A stretch of 63,112 nt of DNA from Anaerolineae bacterium (GTDB lineage Bacteria; Chloroflexota; Anaerolineae; Anaerolineales; Villigracilaceae), in NCBI GenBank assembly GCA_022616105.1, contig JAKEFL010000042.1, positions 1 through 63,112 on the forward strand. Direction: 5' to 3'. Below are positions 5,668 through 25,002 of the stretch, in pieces. Position 1 is the stretch's first letter; every line of letters starts with the position of its first letter. The notes beneath the pieces were generated by a model. That model did not search any database. It had not been told where the DNA came from and worked only from the letters and a program-made list of their open reading frames with translations. Made by a program: the position numbers and the translations under genes.

Positions 5668-5883
5668 GTGAGAGCGATGAATGAGATGGAGATGACGAAA
5701 AATGAGGCCCTTAAGGAGCACGTCCGGAGTCATGTGAGCTACCCGGCTACCAAGGCTCAACTACTTCAAGCTTGTGAGGCTGGCGAGTTTCCAGAGGAAG
5801 TGCAGAAGATGGCGGAAATGCACCTCCAAGACAAGACTTACAACTCGGCTGACGAGGTTCTGAAAGACCTCCACATGATGTAG
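5668..5883 (+). CDS. Small DUF2795-like protein
   Basis: VSYPATKAQLL...KTYNSADEV pattern; RBS AAGGAGG. Confidence 0.7.
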   Translation: MRAMNEMEMTKNEALKEHVRSHVSYPATKAQLLQACEAGEFPEEVQKMAEMHLQDKTYNSADEVLKDLHMM

Positions 5884-13677: not shown

Positions 13678-13821
13678 GCCATCCTCTAATAAACTTTTTG
13701 CGAAAGTCCTTTCGCCACAGACTGCGCAAGCGCACAGAGAAAATGAGTTTTTCTCAAAGGTCTCAGTGGGCTCTGTGGCTAAGCAATGGCTTACTTATAA
13801 AAGAAGTCTGATTAAACAATA

Positions 13822-13854
13822 AAGTGAATGTCGATGGTGAATCGACATTCACTT
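13822..13854. repeat. Perfect 14-bp inverted repeat upstream of the response regulator
   Basis: AAGTGAATGTCGAT-GGTGA-ATCGACATTCACTT. Confidence 0.8.
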
Positions 13855-14049
13855 CAAAATAACTCCTTCCCCCTTTGCATCCCGCTTCCGAGCTTACGAA
13901 TAAATTCTTATATCATTGTATATTTGCTGGCATCGTTACTCAAGAGGCATTTGATTTTTCCACGTAGACATTTGTACTGATTTTTTGGAAAAGCCTTGAA
14001 ATAATATGTAATTTTTGCTAATCTTGAATTGTCTGGATGAGGAGGCGAA

Positions 14050-14736
14050 ATGGAAAATAAAATTCGCGTGACGATCCTGGATGACCATCAAAGTATTGTG
14101 GATGGATATCTATTCCGTTTGAGCAAAGTCCTCCAGATTGAAGTGATAGACACACTGAAGCATGGCGAAGATCTTGAGCCTGCGCTGAAGAAACAGGTCC
14201 CCGATGTGCTGCTTCTTGATGTGTATGTACCTGTATCAGCAGAAAACCAGAATCCCTACCCAATCCTTCAAATTATCCCTGATCTGCTCCAGCGCTATCC
14301 CGATCTTGTTATTCTGGTGATCAGCATGCATGCGGAGCGCGGCATCATCCGCGCAGTGATGGAGAGTGGCGCCAGTGGCTATATTCTCAAAGATGACCAG
14401 AAAACGATATTGGATTTGGGAAATGTGATTCTCTCAATTGCCAGTGGGGGAATCTACCTCAGCGAAAAGGCACATACGGTATATATGAAGAATCGCAATG
14501 CTGCAAGCGAGGAGCCTTTAACCGGCCGGCAGATGAAGGTGCTTTCATTATGTGCTGCATACCCGGACCATTCGACCAGTGAACTGGCGCGTGAGATGAA
14601 CGTGGCAAATTCAACGGTCCGCAACCTGCTCTCGGAAATGTATCTAAGGCTGGGGGTGCACAGCCGCGCAGCGGCTATTGCGAAGGCGCGTCAGTTGGGG
14701 TTGATCGCCCCGGATTCACCCCCATTGTCAATATAG
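14050..14736 (+). CDS. NarL/LuxR-family response regulator (ComA-like)
   Basis: ILDDH, VLLLDV, SMH, GASGYILKD receiver; C-terminal LT.RQ..VL...LAREMNVANSTVRN HTH; RBS AGGAGG. Confidence 0.9.
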   Translation: MENKIRVTILDDHQSIVDGYLFRLSKVLQIEVIDTLKHGEDLEPALKKQVPDVLLLDVYVPVSAENQNPYPILQIIPDLLQRYPDLVILVISMHAERGIIRAVMESGASGYILKDDQKTILDLGNVILSIASGGIYLSEKAHTVYMKNRNAASEEPLTGRQMKVLSLCAAYPDHSTSELAREMNVANSTVRNLLSEMYLRLGVHSRAAAIAKARQLGLIAPDSPPLSI

Positions 14737-14737
14737 T

Positions 14738-15670
14738 CTAAAGGGAAAGTCCCAGCGTGTCGAAGAGTCTATGCACGGGGGCAATGACGGCTTCGATAAC
14801 GGAATCAACTGCCCCTTTGTTTGGAAGCGGGGTTTTATCCAGAATATTTTGCGCGGCTCGATGCCTGCGAAGAAGTTGATCCACACAATAACTGACCGCA
14901 CCGCATCGTATCAAAATTTCCTGGGCTTCTCGTAAAGCATCTTCAGCAGATACCTTTTGATACAACTCCATAAATCTTTCGCGGTCCGGGTGCTCTACGG
15001 TTTGCGCGAAAAGGATCGGCAGAGGCTTTCGTCCTTGCAGCCAATCGGGGTTGGCGGGCATAGCCATCGTATCATTCAGGTCATCGTGGATCTGGATCAT
15101 CTCACCATACAGTTCTCCGAGTTTTCGTATTTCATTCGCTACATCATCTGTCGCTTCGCCAAATAATGCCCCGAGGTGAAACGCGCACCCATAGAACGGT
15201 GCGCTTTTATTTTCCACAACCTGCCAGTAGGATTTTTCATCAGATGGATTTTGGATATCCAACTCCTGACCAAACGCGGTGATGGACATCAGTTGACTCA
15301 GGCTTTTCACCGCCTCATGTCTGACCTTGGTGCTGGCTCTGTTCCCGAGGAGTGCCTCCACACCCGCAGCCTGGAAAGCGACCGCGAAGTTCGCAGCTCT
15401 GCCACTGCCAATGCGGTGATATTCCCCGCGCGGGTCATCATCCAGCATATCATCCACGAGGATGATGCTGATCTGCGCGCAGGCAAGCGCGGCGGAGGCG
15501 GGAATAGCCTTTTCAGGAGGTTCACCAAGAGCCTGGCAGGCGATGACCGGCAGTTCCCAATCGCGCGGGCGCGTGCACGCAGCGCGTCGTAGGATATTCC
15601 CCATCTCGTGCCACGAGTCAAAAACCGGAAAGGTTATAAGATAATCGACGGTTGATTGATATATATCCAT
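14738..15670 (-). CDS. Isoprenyl-diphosphate-synthase-fold protein, putative ComQ-like peptide Trp prenyltransferase
   Basis: DDMLD and DDLND Asp-rich motifs, GQELD, NKS; lacks GKRxRP and post-FARM RRG; directly downstream of a Trp-tailed peptide ORF. Confidence 0.75.
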   Translation of the reverse strand: MDIYQSTVDYLITFPVFDSWHEMGNILRRAACTRPRDWELPVIACQALGEPPEKAIPASAALACAQISIILVDDMLDDDPRGEYHRIGSGRAANFAVAFQAAGVEALLGNRASTKVRHEAVKSLSQLMSITAFGQELDIQNPSDEKSYWQVVENKSAPFYGCAFHLGALFGEATDDVANEIRKLGELYGEMIQIHDDLNDTMAMPANPDWLQGRKPLPILFAQTVEHPDRERFMELYQKVSAEDALREAQEILIRCGAVSYCVDQLLRRHRAAQNILDKTPLPNKGAVDSVIEAVIAPVHRLFDTLGLSL

Positions 15671-15685
15671 AACTACTCCAATTCA

Positions 15686-15750
15686 GACTGGTCGGGAATT
15701 TTCCCGACCAGTCCATTATTATTGTAATTATGCTGCGCCTGGGGCAGCAT
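15686..15750 (-). terminator. Two hairpins between peptide gene and prenyltransferase
   Basis: GACTGGTCGGGAA-TT-TTCCCGACCAGTC (15686-15713) and ATGCTGC-N7-GCAGCAT (15730-15750). Confidence 0.55.
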
Positions 15751-15761
15751 TTTGATTCTAC

Positions 15762-15908
15762 TCACCAGTCTTGCCAGCCCAGGTTGCTCATCAGAGCATT
15801 AGTTTGCTTGCGGTTGATCCGGGTGATTTTGGCAAGAGCCTCCTGATATGGTCCTTGAAGTTGGGAGGTAGAAGAAATTGAGGCATAGAAACCTTTCATT
15901 GTGTTCAT
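15762..15908 (-). CDS. Unannotated 48-aa ComX-like pheromone precursor MNTMKGFYASISSTSQLQGPYQEALAKITRINRKQTNALMSNLGWQDW
   Basis: Translated by hand; RBS AAGGAG 8 nt upstream; Trp at -4 and -1; lies between prenyltransferase and kinase. Confidence 0.8.
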   Translation of the reverse strand: MNTMKGFYASISSTSQLQGPYQEALAKITRINRKQTNALMSNLGWQDW

Positions 15909-16013
15909 CAGATTTGCTCCTTTTCATTATTGGGTTTTGTTCATTACGTATCTTGAATTGATATTATGGGTTTTCTTTCTTACCACCTCCTTGAATAGTT
16001 GATGAGTTAATGT

Positions 16014-18459: not shown

Positions 18460-19587
18460 ATGACAGAGTTCGGAAGACAACTTCGTAAATTCCGGCAACA
18501 GTGCAATGATCCGCTAAGTCCACATGGAAAACTTACCCAGGAGAAGTTTGGTGAACTTCTAGGCGAAGCGCTAGGGATCAGATATAGCGGTGCAGCAGTC
18601 AGTGATTGGGAACGCGGGGTAAGTAAAATCCATGCAGATCAACGGCAAGTGCTAATTAGTATTCTTAAAGTGTTAGCTCAGCGGGGTGGGATCAAGACAG
18701 TAATGGAAGCCAATCAGTTGTTGGAGGCTGGAAATTACCGCGCCCTTAATACAAAAGAGGTGCAGCAAATCTTTCCAAATGTTTCAAATGATTTGAATAT
18801 TAAACATTCCATTCCCAAACAAAAAATTTCCAAATCTTTTGTCCCCTTCCTTCTGGCCGACCTTTTCCATATGTCCGAGGATGAGCTGCAGGGGTTGCTT
18901 GCAAAGGCTGAAAAAGGACCGCCTCCGGCCTGGCCGCGCATTCTGGCAGCTTTCATGCGAAAAGCATTTGACCACTTGTCGTTTTCCACCGTCATTTGGA
19001 TTTGGCTCTGGCTGATTGCCTGGTGGCTGGTCACACCTTCCTGGCGCAGGTTGTTTGAGAATCGAGATGTGGCTTTAATTGCTATTGGAATGTATGTTGG
19101 CGGGTCATTAGGAATTCCCCTACTTATTGGATTGCTTGTCAACACCAAAGATAATGATTACTGGAAAGGACAAACCGAGGCGAACTCGTTTCTGGTACGT
19201 CTTTATACCTATCAAGGTGCAGGCATTGGATTTAACCTGGGTTATTTTCTTATATTTCCTCTGAGTCTGGCACGTCATTACTTGAATTTGGAGTCAGCAG
19301 CGTGGGTTACTATCCTGGTGGCTACATTAGGATTGATCCTGGGAAATATGTCTGCGCGCGTGGTTCCATACAACCTGTGGGTTGCATACGGACGATTAAG
19401 ATTCTCTGATGGTGCGATATTCTTCGTAGTGGCACTGCTCGGGCCCATGTGGGGATTATTTTTTCTTGAGTATTACTCTATCTTCCAAAGTCCCGTATGG
19501 GGAACATTGGTGATTCTGTTGGCAGTTACGTTGGCTGCGATGATCACTACGCGACAATCCAACAAGAAACTTTATACAGAACAATAA
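18460..19587 (+). CDS. XRE-type HTH protein with C-terminal multi-pass membrane domain
   Basis: FGRQLRKFR...LTQEKFGELL...AAVSDWERG; about six hydrophobic segments. Confidence 0.75.
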   Translation: MTEFGRQLRKFRQQCNDPLSPHGKLTQEKFGELLGEALGIRYSGAAVSDWERGVSKIHADQRQVLISILKVLAQRGGIKTVMEANQLLEAGNYRALNTKEVQQIFPNVSNDLNIKHSIPKQKISKSFVPFLLADLFHMSEDELQGLLAKAEKGPPPAWPRILAAFMRKAFDHLSFSTVIWIWLWLIAWWLVTPSWRRLFENRDVALIAIGMYVGGSLGIPLLIGLLVNTKDNDYWKGQTEANSFLVRLYTYQGAGIGFNLGYFLIFPLSLARHYLNLESAAWVTILVATLGLILGNMSARVVPYNLWVAYGRLRFSDGAIFFVVALLGPMWGLFFLEYYSIFQSPVWGTLVILLAVTLAAMITTRQSNKKLYTEQ

Positions 19588-19761: not shown

Positions 19762-22700
19762 ATGACCTTTGCCCACCTCCACGTTCACACGGAATACTCT
19801 TTGCTCGATGGCTTCTCGAATATCAAGAAGCTCGTGCGGCGCGTGAAGGAATTGGAAATGCCCGCCGTGGCAATTACCGACCATGGCACGATGTTTGGGG
19901 TGATTGACTTTTACAAAGCGGCTACAACCGAAGGAATCAAGCCGATCATCGGAGTCGAAGCCTATCTTTCCGCACGTGGGATGACAGACCGCGACTCGAA
20001 ACTTGACCGTACATCCTCTCATTTGCTATTACTTGCAGAAAACGAGACCGGCTACAAGAACCTGCTCAAGATTTCTTCCGCTGCACAACTTGAAGGCTTC
20101 TATTATTATCCCCGCATTGATCATGACTTTTTAGCGGCTCACTCCGAAGGGATCATCTGTACTTCTGGATGTATGTCTGCTGAAATTCCGCGCTTTTTGT
20201 TGGATGACAAACCGGAAGAAGCAGTCCAGCGCATGAACTGGTATTACGATGTCTTTGGCAAAGACCGTTTCTTTGTTGAACTCCAGCAGCACAATATTAA
20301 AGAGATCACGGACTTAAATCGTAAACTGGTCGAGATGGGGGCGCGTTACTCAGCAAAATACGTAGCAACGAACGATGTGCACTACATTAACCAGGACGAC
20401 TGGCGCTTGCAGGATATTCTGCTCGCCATCCAAACGCAGACGATCCTCACCGACCCCGACCGCATGCGCATGACAGACGACTCATATTACCTCCGCACGC
20501 CAGCGGAAATGAGTCAACTTTTTACGGAAGTCCCTGAAACATTGAGCAACACCTTGCTTATTGCTGAACGCTGCAATGTGGACTTATCGTTCAAGGGCTA
20601 TCACCTGCCTGATTTCCCTGTCCCTGAGGGATTCACAACCGAAACATACCTCCGTTATCTGTGTGAAGAAGGGGCGAGAAAACGCTATGGGGATCGCGCG
20701 GCCAGTGAAGAAGTCCAGGAAAGAATCGATTATGAGTTGGGCGTGGTCCACAAAATGGGATTCGACGCGTACTTCCTGATCGTATGGGACTTATGTCGTT
20801 ATGCCCGCGAGAATGAGATCTGGTATAACGCGCGCGGTTCAGCCGCGGGTTCAATCGTCGCGTATGTGCTGGAGATCACGATTGTTGATCCGATCCAGCA
20901 CGATCTGTTGTTCGAACGATTCCTGAACCCGGGCCGTATCTCTATGCCCGATATTGACCTTGATTTCCGCGATGACCGCCGCGCCGAAATGCTTGAGTAT
21001 TGCACGCGAAAATACGCAAGTGACAAGGTCGCACAGATTATTACATTTGGCACGATGGGAACGAAAGCGGCCCTGCGCGACGTAGGACGCGTAATGGATA
21101 TCCCATTGCCTGAGGTAGACCGCGTTGCAAAGCTGGTGCCGTTTGTTTCAGGCCGCACAACCACCATGCAGGACGCGCTCGAAGTCCCTGAGTTTAAAAA
21201 GATTTACAACGAAGAATCGCATTTGCGCGAGCTGATCGATATTGCCACCAAAATGGAAGGCACAGTTCGCAATGCAGGGACACATGCCGCGGGCGTGGTG
21301 ATCTCGGACAAGCCGTTGCTTGAATATCTGCCTTTGCATCGCCCCACATCGAATTCAGAAGAGACACCCATCAAAACTGTGACACAGTTCGAAATGGGCA
21401 TTCTCGATTCGCTTGGCATGTTGAAAGTGGATTTCCTTGGCCTCATCACATTGACTGTGATGGCAAAAGCCTGTGAATTGATCGAGAAACGGCACGGCAT
21501 TAAATATGATTTAAGCAATATTCCATTGGATGATCCGAAATCATTTGAATTAATGGGCAACGGGCAGACGGCAGGCGTCTTCCAGGTGGAAGGTGGCGGC
21601 ATGACGCGCTATCTCGTGCAAATGAAGCCCAAGTCGCTGGATAATATCATCGCCATGGTAGCACTCTATCGCCCGGGACCGATGGCTTTCATTCCGGATT
21701 ACATTGCGCGTATGCATGGTGAAGCGGATGTGGAGTTTCGCCATCCGGCATTGGAATCTATCTTCCAGGATACGTTTGGAATTCCTGTATATCAAGAGCA
21801 GTTGATGCGCGCCGCAGTCGAACTCGCTGGATATACCCCTTCAGAATCAGATGAACTTCGCAAGGCAATTTCGAAGAAGAACAAAAAAGATATTGATAAG
21901 CATCGCGAGAAATTCGTGAAAGGGGCTGTAAAGCAAGGCATGGAGAAGGCAACTGCAGAATCGATCTATAGCGACTGGGAGGAGTTCGCGCGATATGGAT
22001 TTAATAAGTGTTTGCCTGGGGATGTGGAGATATTGGATGCTTCAACAGGACTCCTCATAAAAATTGAAGATTTGTATTACGGCCTAAAACAAATCACAAC
22101 CACGCTTTCATGTGATATTCCTACTTTGAAGTTGAAAAATCAGCCAATCACTCAGGTAATAGACAATGGCATCAAGCCCGTTTTCCGACTCACAACAGCA
22201 TCTGGGCGTGTAATCGAAGCAACAGGTAATCATCCATTCTACACTTATCATGGATGGCGCCAGTTAGATGAATTAGAGTCTGATGATTTTATTGCAGTTC
22301 CGAGAGTTATCCGTGTTGAAGGGCAGAGTGAATGGCCTGAGAATGAGGTCATTGCACTGGGGCATTTGTTAGCAGAAGGAAACCTATGCCACCCACATTC
22401 TGTATACTTTTATAGCCAGGATATTGACCAAGTTAATGACTTCGTTCAAGCTGCCAATTCTTTTGAAAATGTGAAATGCACAATCGCTACTCATAAAAGC
22501 ACATACTCCATTTATGCTGCGCGCGCAGATAAAAGATTCCCGCCAAGAATTTTCACCTGGTCGGGTGAACTTGGTTTGCTTGGCAAGAATGCCCGCACTA
22601 AGGAAATCCCTGCTTCGGTATTCGAATTGAACAATCGTCAAATCGGGTTAATGATCAGCCGCATGTGGGAAGGTGATGGCCATATCGATATGCGCGGGCA

Positions 22701-25002
22701 CAGTTTATATTATGCCACCGCGTCACATCGGACGGCGAGTCAACTTCAGCACTTATTATTGCGTTTCGGCATTATTGGCCGCGTCCGTACAGTGGAATTT
22801 CCTTATAAGGAAGGACGCATTGGATATCAAGTCTTTATTACGGGCCACGAGAACTTCGTGAGATTTGCGGAGCACATTGGTTGTTACTTCCTCAGCAAAA
22901 AACGCAGATCTATTATCGAGTATCTCGCTTCTTATATTCCGCCTGAAAAGATTGGCACAAAAGATATTGTTCCAGCTAGTGTCAAGGAATATATTCGTGC
23001 CGCGAAGGATCAATCAGGTCTAACGTGGACAAACCTCTCCCAAATTACGGGTGTGGCGCCTCGCGAGTTCCATCCAACCAATTCGGCTGGCAAGATCGGA
23101 TTCCGACGCAATACATTACAAAGATTAGGCAATTATTTCGATGATCCCAATATCAAACGCTATGCTGAAAGTGACCTTTATTGGGATCGTATTGCCTATA
23201 TTGAATACGTTGGGGAAAAACAAACTTACGATCTTGAAATTGCTGACACACATAACTTTATTGCAAACAATATTCTGGTTCACAACAGTCATGCCGCCGA
23301 CTATGGCGTGATCGCTGTCCAAACAGCGTATCTCAAATCACATTATCCTGCCGAATATATGACTGCATTGCTCTCCGCTTCTGCGGGCATCACGGAAAAA
23401 GTTGCGTTCTACATCTCCGACGCGCGCAGCATGGGTGTGCATGTTCTGCCAATTGAGATCAACGCCTCTGGCTGGGACTTTGCGATTGAAGATGTAGAAG
23501 ATAAGGCACATATTCGCTTTGGATTTGGGGCAGTAAAGAATGTAGGTCAGGGCGCGGTGGAATTAATCCTCGAAGAACGCGATCAAAATGGCGTCTTTAA
23601 AAATCTCAATGACTTTGCCCGCCGCGTCGATTTGCGCGCAGTTGGAAAGCGCGCGCTCGAATGTCTGATCAAGGTCGGCGCAATGGATTCGTTCGGTAAC
23701 CGTGCCGCACTGCTTGCCTCGCTCGACCGCGTTGTATCCATCAGCAGCAATCATTTCCGCGCGGCGGAGGCGGGACAGATGAGTCTCTTCGGCGCGGCGA
23801 CTGGTGTGATAGATGAGATCACTCTTCCAGATGTCAACAATGTGGATAAACGCGAGATGCTCAACTGGGAGCGTGAGCTGATAGGTCTTTACATCTCAGA
23901 CCATCCACTTACGCCGTATCAAAAAACTTTTGCGCAGATCGTCAGTTATTTTTCGGGTCAACTCGGCGAAGCGCAGCATGAAGAGAAAGTCCGTTTGGCG
24001 GGTCTCATCACCGCCGTTCGTCCGTATATGACCAAGACCAACAAGCCGATGGGTTTCGTCACACTCGAAGATATCCAGGGCAATATCGAACTTGTACTGT
24101 TCCCGCGCACATGGGAGAAAACGCGCGTGCAGCTCACAGTCGGTCAGATCGTGATCGTCGAAGGCAAGGTGGATATGAACAGCACTCCACCGAAGGTCCT
24201 TGTGGATACGATTCGGACTGAGATCAAGATTCTTGAATCATTGGACGCTTCGTCTCCGCTCAGCGCGAATGAGCCGCCTCTCACCAAGCCTGCGCCTGCT
24301 CCTGTTCAAAAAGCGACTCCAACGCCCAAACATCCTCCCATCAACACCCCATCGACGCGCGTTCCCGCGCCTCAAATTGCAGAATCCATGCCTGCATACT
24401 CCGCAGGACAGGATGCCATTCCGCCCTACGATGACATTCCACCTCCACCCCCTGATAACTTCCCCGATGGCTGGGATAGTGAATGGCAGCCCTCATTTGA
24501 AAACGCGGAGCTCGCTGCCCGCCCCGAGCCTGTAGGATACACACCGCCGCGTGATTTAGCTGCCCAATCAGTCGAGGAGATAAAAGAGGACACAGCTGAA
24601 TCGACTGCTGATAAACAGGAACAAGTTGAGGCGGTGCATGAAGCGCTGGCAGTCCAGCCGATTGAGTCTCTTCCAAACGAGACTCTTTCCATGCCGCCTT
24701 CGTTATACGTTCCGCTTGCAAAGGAAGAAAAGGACAAGGAACACCGGCCGCAGCAAATCACAGTGACCCTGCGCTCAACGGGTGACAAGGAATGGGATAA
24801 GCGCAGAATAAAATCGATCTATGGCACGCTCATCTCATTCCACGGGCGGGACCGGTTCAGTTTCCAGATCTTTGAGAATGGCTCAGGGCATCTGATCGAT
24901 TTCCCCAACGATACAACGCGCGTCTGCCCCGAAATGCTCGAACGCCTGAAAAAGTTGATGGGGCAGGAGAGCTGGCGCGTGGAAGAAATTACGTTTCAAT
25001 AA
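19762..25002 (+). CDS. dnaE: DNA polymerase III alpha subunit with intein
   Basis: HLHVHTEYSLLDG PHP motif, RGSAAGS, MPDIDLDF, GFNK/SHA, OB fold. Confidence 0.97.
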   Translation: MTFAHLHVHTEYSLLDGFSNIKKLVRRVKELEMPAVAITDHGTMFGVIDFYKAATTEGIKPIIGVEAYLSARGMTDRDSKLDRTSSHLLLLAENETGYKNLLKISSAAQLEGFYYYPRIDHDFLAAHSEGIICTSGCMSAEIPRFLLDDKPEEAVQRMNWYYDVFGKDRFFVELQQHNIKEITDLNRKLVEMGARYSAKYVATNDVHYINQDDWRLQDILLAIQTQTILTDPDRMRMTDDSYYLRTPAEMSQLFTEVPETLSNTLLIAERCNVDLSFKGYHLPDFPVPEGFTTETYLRYLCEEGARKRYGDRAASEEVQERIDYELGVVHKMGFDAYFLIVWDLCRYARENEIWYNARGSAAGSIVAYVLEITIVDPIQHDLLFERFLNPGRISMPDIDLDFRDDRRAEMLEYCTRKYASDKVAQIITFGTMGTKAALRDVGRVMDIPLPEVDRVAKLVPFVSGRTTTMQDALEVPEFKKIYNEESHLRELIDIATKMEGTVRNAGTHAAGVVISDKPLLEYLPLHRPTSNSEETPIKTVTQFEMGILDSLGMLKVDFLGLITLTVMAKACELIEKRHGIKYDLSNIPLDDPKSFELMGNGQTAGVFQVEGGGMTRYLVQMKPKSLDNIIAMVALYRPGPMAFIPDYIARMHGEADVEFRHPALESIFQDTFGIPVYQEQLMRAAVELAGYTPSESDELRKAISKKNKKDIDKHREKFVKGAVKQGMEKATAESIYSDWEEFARYGFNKCLPGDVEILDASTGLLIKIEDLYYGLKQITTTLSCDIPTLKLKNQPITQVIDNGIKPVFRLTTASGRVIEATGNHPFYTYHGWRQLDELESDDFIAVPRVIRVEGQSEWPENEVIALGHLLAEGNLCHPHSVYFYSQDIDQVNDFVQAANSFENVKCTIATHKSTYSIYAARADKRFPPRIFTWSGELGLLGKNARTKEIPASVFELNNRQIGLMISRMWEGDGHIDMRGHSLYYATASHRTASQLQHLLLRFGIIGRVRTVEFPYKEGRIGYQVFITGHENFVRFAEHIGCYFLSKKRRSIIEYLASYIPPEKIGTKDIVPASVKEYIRAAKDQSGLTWTNLSQITGVAPREFHPTNSAGKIGFRRNTLQRLGNYFDDPNIKRYAESDLYWDRIAYIEYVGEKQTYDLEIADTHNFIANNILVHNSHAADYGVIAVQTAYLKSHYPAEYMTALLSASAGITEKVAFYISDARSMGVHVLPIEINASGWDFAIEDVEDKAHIRFGFGAVKNVGQGAVELILEERDQNGVFKNLNDFARRVDLRAVGKRALECLIKVGAMDSFGNRAALLASLDRVVSISSNHFRAAEAGQMSLFGAATGVIDEITLPDVNNVDKREMLNWERELIGLYISDHPLTPYQKTFAQIVSYFSGQLGEAQHEEKVRLAGLITAVRPYMTKTNKPMGFVTLEDIQGNIELVLFPRTWEKTRVQLTVGQIVIVEGKVDMNSTPPKVLVDTIRTEIKILESLDASSPLSANEPPLTKPAPAPVQKATPTPKHPPINTPSTRVPAPQIAESMPAYSAGQDAIPPYDDIPPPPPDNFPDGWDSEWQPSFENAELAARPEPVGYTPPRDLAAQSVEEIKEDTAESTADKQEQVEAVHEALAVQPIESLPNETLSMPPSLYVPLAKEEKDKEHRPQQITVTLRSTGDKEWDKRRIKSIYGTLISFHGRDRFSFQIFENGSGHLIDFPNDTTRVCPEMLERLKKLMGQESWRVEEITFQ
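22009..23286 (+). mobile_element. Intein (426 aa) with LAGLIDADG homing endonuclease
   Basis: GFNK|CLPGD...ATGNHPF...LGHLLAEG...RMWEGDG...TYDLEI..THNFIANNILVHN|SHAADY. Confidence 0.95.

Follow-up and report, generated by a model that had tools for sequence, protein, structure and literature searches.

A predicted tryptophan-prenylation peptide signalling cassette with a paired-tryptophan precursor in an Anaerolineae bacterium

A stretch of 63,112 nucleotides from an Anaerolineae bacterium (contig JAKEFL010000042.1 of assembly GCA_022616105.1), called the window here at its full length, encodes a 48-residue peptide, X, beside a predicted prenyltransferase, Q, a sensor kinase and a response regulator. 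We argue this cassette makes a prenyl-tryptophan (prenyl-Trp) peptide signal like those of ComQXPA and PalPXQ, and we put the probability of this reading at about 0.8. We favour it because the genes are linked, a W-x-x-W motif is conserved in X, Q has the motifs expected of it, the kinase has a PDZ-like domain, X and the sensor form pherotype-like pairs, and the tail behind the motif has been lost recurrently.

The precursor gene and its relatives

The initial annotation had described a 48-residue open reading frame (ORF) with AAGGAG 8 nt upstream and called it a ComX-like precursor. The ORF itself holds up. The minus-strand translation of 15762-15908 is exactly the quoted peptide followed by TGA, and the plus strand has an internal stop. 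When X is compared with six close homologues the mismatches at codon positions 1, 2 and 3 number 64, 35 and 137, which is the pattern of a coding gene. A Shine-Dalgarno (SD)-like word stands at 79 of 81 precursor starts, and X is single-copy in its own genome. On the sequence evidence X is a real, conserved gene, beyond chance. An overlapping 42-residue ORF on the same strand (15799-15927) was set aside as a shadow frame. The structural model of X predicts helices at residues 4-12, 20-29 and 33-42 (mean pLDDT 77.7), and the peptides of the family are 43-72 residues long with a conserved helical leader.

Relatives were collected by a scan with Q, and the best 80 of 99 were kept as loci (L numbers below). 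Most records come from Anaerolineae or other Chloroflexota, and 12 come from Acidobacteriota (Thermoanaerobaculia). A precursor ORF lies upstream of Q in all 80: a profile grown from X found it in 64, and in the other 16 a diverged member was chosen by eye. The kinase has a homologue in 71 of the 80 loci and the regulator in 62. Several of the loci lacking one lie on short contigs, and in the Acidobacteriota the regulator is a different one. All four genes are intact in the window. There the kinase is divergent from X, X precedes Q on the same strand and the regulator is convergent with Q. A protein database search gave 129 X homologues, with W-x-x-W in 118 of the 120 listed, though the search profile itself contained that motif. 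The cassette is patchy, since strong Q matches occur in 7 of 36 same-genus genomes. X was found in at least 5 of 400 genomes of the phylum, which is a lower bound.

It must be noted that X is not a ComX by family. It has no Pfam or NCBIfam match, the ComX profile PF05952 matches 0 of 67 family rows at E up to 0.1 and does not match the window peptide at E up to 1, and no family row matches the NHLP leader. A ComX family search of the genome gave no match, but its control likewise matched nowhere, so this search says nothing either way. What survives of the ComX-like label is that X is very likely the Trp-prenylation precursor of a ComQXPA-like cassette. We consider it likely that X works like ComX from outside the ComX family. 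No description of the X family was found in the literature, where PalQ and StheQ come closest, although subscription papers or supplements could hold one. Nor was a twin-Trp-core cassette found there for Anaerolineae or Acidobacteriota; the sole match for 'WxxW' concerns C-mannosylation.

The known systems are compared here as the accessible parts of the cited sources describe them. The cassette resembles ComQXPA of Bacillus subtilis, which has an isoprenyl diphosphate synthase (IDS)-fold enzyme, a short Trp precursor, a kinase of about 765 residues with many transmembrane (TM) segments, a PDZ-like domain and HisKA_3, and a LuxR regulator (PMC4008528, PMC5331326, PMC9620489). There too, close relatives show joint variation of signal and sensor, and no protease is linked. 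The order of the genes is different: comQ-comX-comP-comA run on one strand. X also differs from ComX in having two invariant Trps rather than one, usually with a tail behind them. The census of ComX places its Trp 5-10 residues from the C-terminus, with an internal Trp in the natto form, and a 2014 census, as far as the accessible text goes, reports no comQXPA outside Firmicutes (PMC4008528).

PalP/PalX/PalQ of Paenibacillus alvei is a second parallel, with a kinase, a precursor and an IDS-fold enzyme that was first annotated as a terpene synthase (PMC10853753). PalX has a structured leader and, like the window peptide, ends in Trp. Unlike the X family it has an NHLP leader and a single conserved terminal Trp (PMC10853753), whereas the second Trp of the motif is terminal in only 11 of 79 X precursors. 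The nearest parallel by phylum is StheQ/StheX of Sphaerobacter thermophilus, also Chloroflexota, where an IDS-fold Trp prenyltransferase lies beside a short precursor with two Trps (bioRxiv 10.64898/2026.08.29.745113). It extends ComQ-like chemistry to the Chloroflexota with a different precursor. StheX is 69 residues long, lies downstream of stheQ and has adjacent C-terminal Trps at -3 and -2, one of which was found modified, and StheQ has an N-type second motif (same source). Lastly, the P domain of ChrPC is a trans-IDS-like prenyltransferase that acts on an internal Trp of a precursor of a ribosomally synthesised and post-translationally modified peptide (RiPP). It is fused to a terpene cyclase (PMC13290415), and none was recognised among the conserved neighbours of our cassette.

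Table 1. Positions of the cassette genes and associated elements in the window (aa, amino acids; HTH, helix-turn-helix).
Feature	Position	Strand	Remarks
NarL/LuxR-type response regulator	14050..14736	plus	receiver + GerE; convergent with Q
Q, 310-aa trans-isoprenyl-diphosphate-synthase-fold protein	14738..15670	minus	PF00348; predicted Trp prenyltransferase
12-bp perfect hairpin	15686..15713	minus	between X and the Q ribosome-binding site; z -7.65
Relic of lost C-terminal tail	15728..15761	minus	DNA alignment with six close loci
X, 48-aa precursor	15762..15908	minus	core ends in invariant W45-x-x-W48; predicted helical leader
AAGGAG, SD of X	15917..15922	minus	8 nt before ATG at 15908
Perfect SD-like word AAGGAGGTG	15984..15992	minus	upstream of X, no start codon behind
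ComP-like sensor kinase, 769 aa	16014..18323	plus	TM1, PDZ-like domain, 8 further hydrophobic segments, GAF-like region, HisKA_3, HATPase_c
HTH + ~5-TM membrane protein	18460..19587	plus	behind kinase; accessory cassette member

The paired tryptophans and the lost tail

Of the 80 loci, 78 carry W-x-x-W, and in the remaining two (L026 and L032) the precursor looks frameshifted. A 67-row alignment of X has no invariant columns other than W45 and W48. Frame and both Trps are thus kept in related loci, the opposite of the loss that the initial annotation had named as fatal to its idea. Its other statements about the motif need revision. It took W48 for an extra terminal Trp, but both residues belong to the core of the family. 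It chose W45 by the ComX rule that the modified Trp is third or fourth from the end. Among the 79 precursors with the motif (the window included; L046 and L047 are identical), the number of residues after the second Trp is 0 in 11, 1 in 7 and 3-16 in 61. Since 61 of the 79 have such a tail, the family does not conserve how far the motif lies from the C-terminus. W45 is fourth from the end in the window, and the invariant Trps lie up to 20 residues from the C-terminus in relatives. The proposed mature peptide SNLGWQDW was a guess, as no cleavage motif was found.

W48 is terminal in the window because of a recent 2-nt deletion. When the DNA is aligned with six close loci, the deletion lies directly after the W48 codon and creates the TGA. 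The remains of the old tail follow out of frame, with TAG where close relatives have CAG, and end at a TAA aligned with the relatives' stop. The TGA is present without indels in contigs of three runs of one study, one of which is possibly the source of the window; a fourth run covers the stretch only in part and leaves out the stop. None of the runs listed as carrying this DNA is an RNA run. A homopolymer artefact is unlikely here, for three assemblies agree and there is an independent second stop two codons into the old tail. In a quick tree of Q the window and the tailed L001 form a pair (99); the starred clade around them has 10 rows, 9 of which are tailed. Judged by alignment and tree, the tail-less window allele is the derived state. 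On a FastTree tree of 80 rows the character 'ends at second Trp' has to change 8 times, or 6 times once 7 long rows are dropped, and the starred branches force at least 4 of these changes; the direction of change is shown for the window only.

One can imagine a scenario where the family makes the signal but the tail-less window allele is broken or silent, so that this strain listens without signalling. We consider this improbable. It would require the tail to be part of the mature ligand or to be needed for export, and it draws on the derived state of the allele in a clade with 9 of 10 rows tailed and on the two lesions in the old tail. The tails end in Ala in 24 of 60 locus precursors and 92 of 116 database precursors, a hint of selection on the C-terminus, which a PDZ domain could read. 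Decayed cassettes do exist as well: L026, L032 and G025:C53:101580-102492 have a frameshifted-looking precursor or a broken Q, and are possibly signal-null strains or assembly errors. On the other hand the short endings cluster 0-1 residues past the second Trp (18/79, with none at 2 or 4), the state has recurred at least 4 times, and 0 of 78 intact locus precursors stop before the second Trp. The four genes of the window are intact, and a database homologue (P0008, 81% identical) also ends at W48. Residues of Q that would mark tail-less systems were sought and nothing clean was found; the best is N at position 141, in 9 of 11 against 19 of 61.

A tail also bears on the chemistry. C-terminal extensions abolish PalQ activity (PMC10853753). 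With tails in 61 of 79 precursors, Q must either accept an internal Trp or act after trimming. ComX natto is a precedent for an internal Trp with C-terminal trimming (PMC5331326).

Which Trp would be modified we can only grade by our own estimate, which was not computed. W45 alone is our first choice, though we would give it somewhat less than even odds. In 72 of 79 precursors it is preceded by a small or acidic residue or by Asn or Pro, a Gly before the acceptor helps PalQ (PMC13290415), and ComQ RO-E-2 accepts a Trp fourth from the end. W48 alone comes second, at about one chance in four by our reckoning, because Q has a PalQ-like motif, the repeated endings fall exactly there, and P0012 keeps only the second Trp. 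Modification of both is slightly less probable still, and is suggested by the double invariance, the tandem Q genes of two loci and the second precursors of the Acidobacteriota; some other site is the least probable of the four. The tandem Q paralogues lie behind one precursor at L059:3926-5903 and L060:995-2952, with the kinase on the same strand. A second X gene occurs in 11 of the 12 Acidobacteriota loci (L067-L075, L077 and L078; for example at L074:5212-5400 and L077:4625-5267), mostly downstream of Q, between Q and a hybrid kinase. The second precursor of L077 has two W-x-x-W cores in one peptide.

A further reading, to which we assign only a minor share of the probability, is that W-x-x-W is a new RiPP core, prenylated on both Trps or on an internal one and cut on both sides, at leader and follower. 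If true, Anaerolineae and Acidobacteriota would have a peptide pheromone prenylated twice, and the window allele would be its natural pre-trimmed form. The paired Q genes of L059 and L060 would then split two transfers, and the L077 two-core precursor would release two signals from one gene.

The enzyme and the sensor

Q has a first aspartate-rich motif (FARM) at D73-D77 and a second region with Q193, D196, D197 and D200, but lacks RRG and GKxxR. Its model is an all-helical IDS fold (pLDDT 96.8, predicted structure). We compared 82 Q proteins (L032 was dropped as too short) with 17 housekeeping synthases of relatives. DDxxD of the FARM is present in 81 of the 82 and Q-x-x-DD-x-x-D in all of them. 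RRG after the FARM or GKxxR was found in 0 of 82, against 16 of 17 housekeeping synthases. RRG and GKxxR bind diphosphates in chain elongation. The second motif of PalQ (Q197, D200 and D204) has the spacing of Q193, D196 and D200 (PMC10853753). Q is predicted to be a Trp prenyltransferase, its resemblance to ComQ, PalQ and StheQ being judged from their published descriptions. At 310 residues Q is shorter than in close relatives (312-343), where a variable C-terminal extension is longer; this extension is shortened as well, and at 14736-14738 Q no longer overlaps the 3' end of the regulator.

Q could instead be a second chain-elongating prenyl diphosphate synthase, with X a small activating subunit or unrelated to it. 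Its Pfam (PF00348), NCBIfam, PDB and Foldseek matches are all polyprenyl synthases, the source records name it 'geranylgeranyl pyrophosphate synthase' where the Atlas gives only 'polyprenyl synthetase', and both Asp-rich motifs are intact. However, the two missing motifs are missing in 82 of 82, and the NCBIfam scores are all far below the cut-offs. The genome keeps a separate housekeeping synthase elsewhere. Q is also patchy and tied to a two-component system, and we regard this route as very improbable.

The kinase has nine hydrophobic segments in a simple scan, and its PDZ-like domain lies at about residues 45-135, between TM1 and TM2. A 39-row profile of this domain matches PDZ (best E 3.5e-4), and Pfam PDZ_2 matches 10 of the 39 rows; the window copy alone is not matched. 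A conserved P-Y-x-G-F loop resembles the carboxylate-binding loop of PDZ domains. ComP, like the cassette kinase, is predicted to have a PDZ domain between TM1 and TM2 (PMC9620489).

X and the PDZ-like domain were compared where both could be scored among 15 pairs of loci with regulators at least 82% identical. In L006/L008 the regulators are 96% identical, yet X is 31% and PDZ 32% identical. The values are 40% and 34% for L007/L008, 67% and 60% for L006/L007, and 83% and 74% for L016/L027. L046/L053 have 98% for X, 97% for PDZ and 81% for the kinase core. In these close pairs X and PDZ vary together, which looks like pherotype diversification.

There are several points that do not favour a prenyl-Trp signal, and they should be set out together. 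The pair pattern may have another source: across 34 loci the correlation of X with Q (partial rho 0.35) is no weaker than that with the kinase sensor (0.31), and because X and the 5' end of the kinase are adjacent, joint transfer alone could give it. The database has exceptions to the motif, P0012 without the first Trp and P0036 ending just before the second. The best sequence and fold matches of Q are chain-elongating synthases, and the match to Ord1 ranks lower (E 7e-5). Unlike ComQ, whose second aspartate-rich motif is the pseudo-motif NDxxD, Q has DDxxD; QxxNDxxD or NDxxD was found in 0 of 82, and in ComQ RO-E-2 the N-to-D change removes about 90% of the activity. Nor does the Gln ahead of the second motif discriminate, as 17 of 17 housekeeping synthases share it, so the prenyltransferase argument has to be carried by the lost motifs and the gene context. 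Finally, the conserved neighbours within 4 kb include no recognisable peptidase or transporter. A C39 peptidase was not found in the genome, which is 88% complete, and the control was detected in 7 of 14.

Expression, neighbouring features and the proposed signal

The hairpin between X and Q is likely a 3' stabiliser or partial terminator that would raise X over Q. Of 71 X-Q spacers, 63 hold a perfect stem of at least 10 bp, as do 1.5% of shuffles; the 10 loci whose gaps fall outside 20-160 nt were excluded. Upstream of X, AGGAGGTG occurs in 43 of 61 regions, 77-119 nt before the start, and 33 of the 43 have no start codon behind. ATTATAGC, a -10 box on the strand of the kinase, occurs along with it in 25 of the 61 loci. 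The SD-like word is possibly a 5' stabiliser of the message, or part of a kinase promoter or leader on the other strand. The genome has AAGGAGGTG at 43 places, and at 36 of these no gene start follows, so the word is not specific to the cassette. Genome-wide it is possibly a 5' mRNA stabiliser, of a kind we take to be STAB-SD-like. Hairpin and word together would fit an X message protected at both ends, giving more substrate than enzyme. A scan for sigma-70 promoters did no better than chance (4 against 3.8).

The same hairpin suggests another scenario, in which X is a cis-acting Trp-sensing leader peptide of the attenuator type that controls Q, and Q prenylates free Trp or indole. X does have two Trp codons followed by a conserved hairpin directly before the Q SD, and Q weakly matches Ord1, which farnesylates free Trp (PMC13290415). 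Against an attenuator stand the variable X-Q gap (3 to 385 nt) and the length of the peptide, 43-72 residues with a conserved helical leader. The second X gene in 11 of 12 Acidobacteriota loci is mostly downstream of Q, and the divergence of X tracks the receptor PDZ in close pairs. We hold this scenario to be highly unlikely.

The helix-turn-helix membrane protein behind the kinase has homologues in 33 of 81 loci, and its membrane part has no match in the Atlas. It could be a second receptor or an export or processing factor. A 16-bp inverted repeat at 13820-13856, upstream of the regulator gene, is terminator-like on the minus strand. Farther away on the plus strand, a gene for DNA polymerase III alpha (19762-25002, 1746 residues) has an insert that, judged by eye, is intein-like, with a Cys start, an HN end and the size of a homing endonuclease. 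A 68-residue ORF with a perfect SD lies at about 5673-5880, also on the plus strand, and has a look-alike start elsewhere in the genome (C40).

If the cassette makes a prenyl-Trp signal as we argue, the most plausible course is as follows. Q would bind the helical leader and transfer a geranyl or farnesyl group to C3 of the indole and close a ring, in the manner of ComQ, PalQ and StheQ. In most relatives the tail would be a dispensable follower that is likely trimmed back to near the second Trp, and the window allele would be a pre-trimmed form. The leader would then be cut and the core released, likely by unlinked general proteases and transport, as in Bacillus. The prenylated core would be sensed as a quorum-type signal by the PDZ-bearing kinase, which would phosphorylate the LuxR regulator.

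As far as the accessible sources go, few IDS-fold systems for prenylating Trp in peptides have been characterised: ComQ, PalQ, ChrPC and StheQ. Databases list the Q-type enzyme under the name of a geranylgeranyl or polyprenyl synthase. The tail-less window and the tailed L001, whose Q proteins are 83% identical, are a natural pair for asking whether prenylation precedes C-terminal trimming or follows it, a question left open for ComX natto (PMC5331326). Peptide lipidation would also benefit from an enzyme able to prenylate internal or paired Trps. If our reading is true, two groups that are mostly uncultured use peptide signals of pherotype-like diversity.
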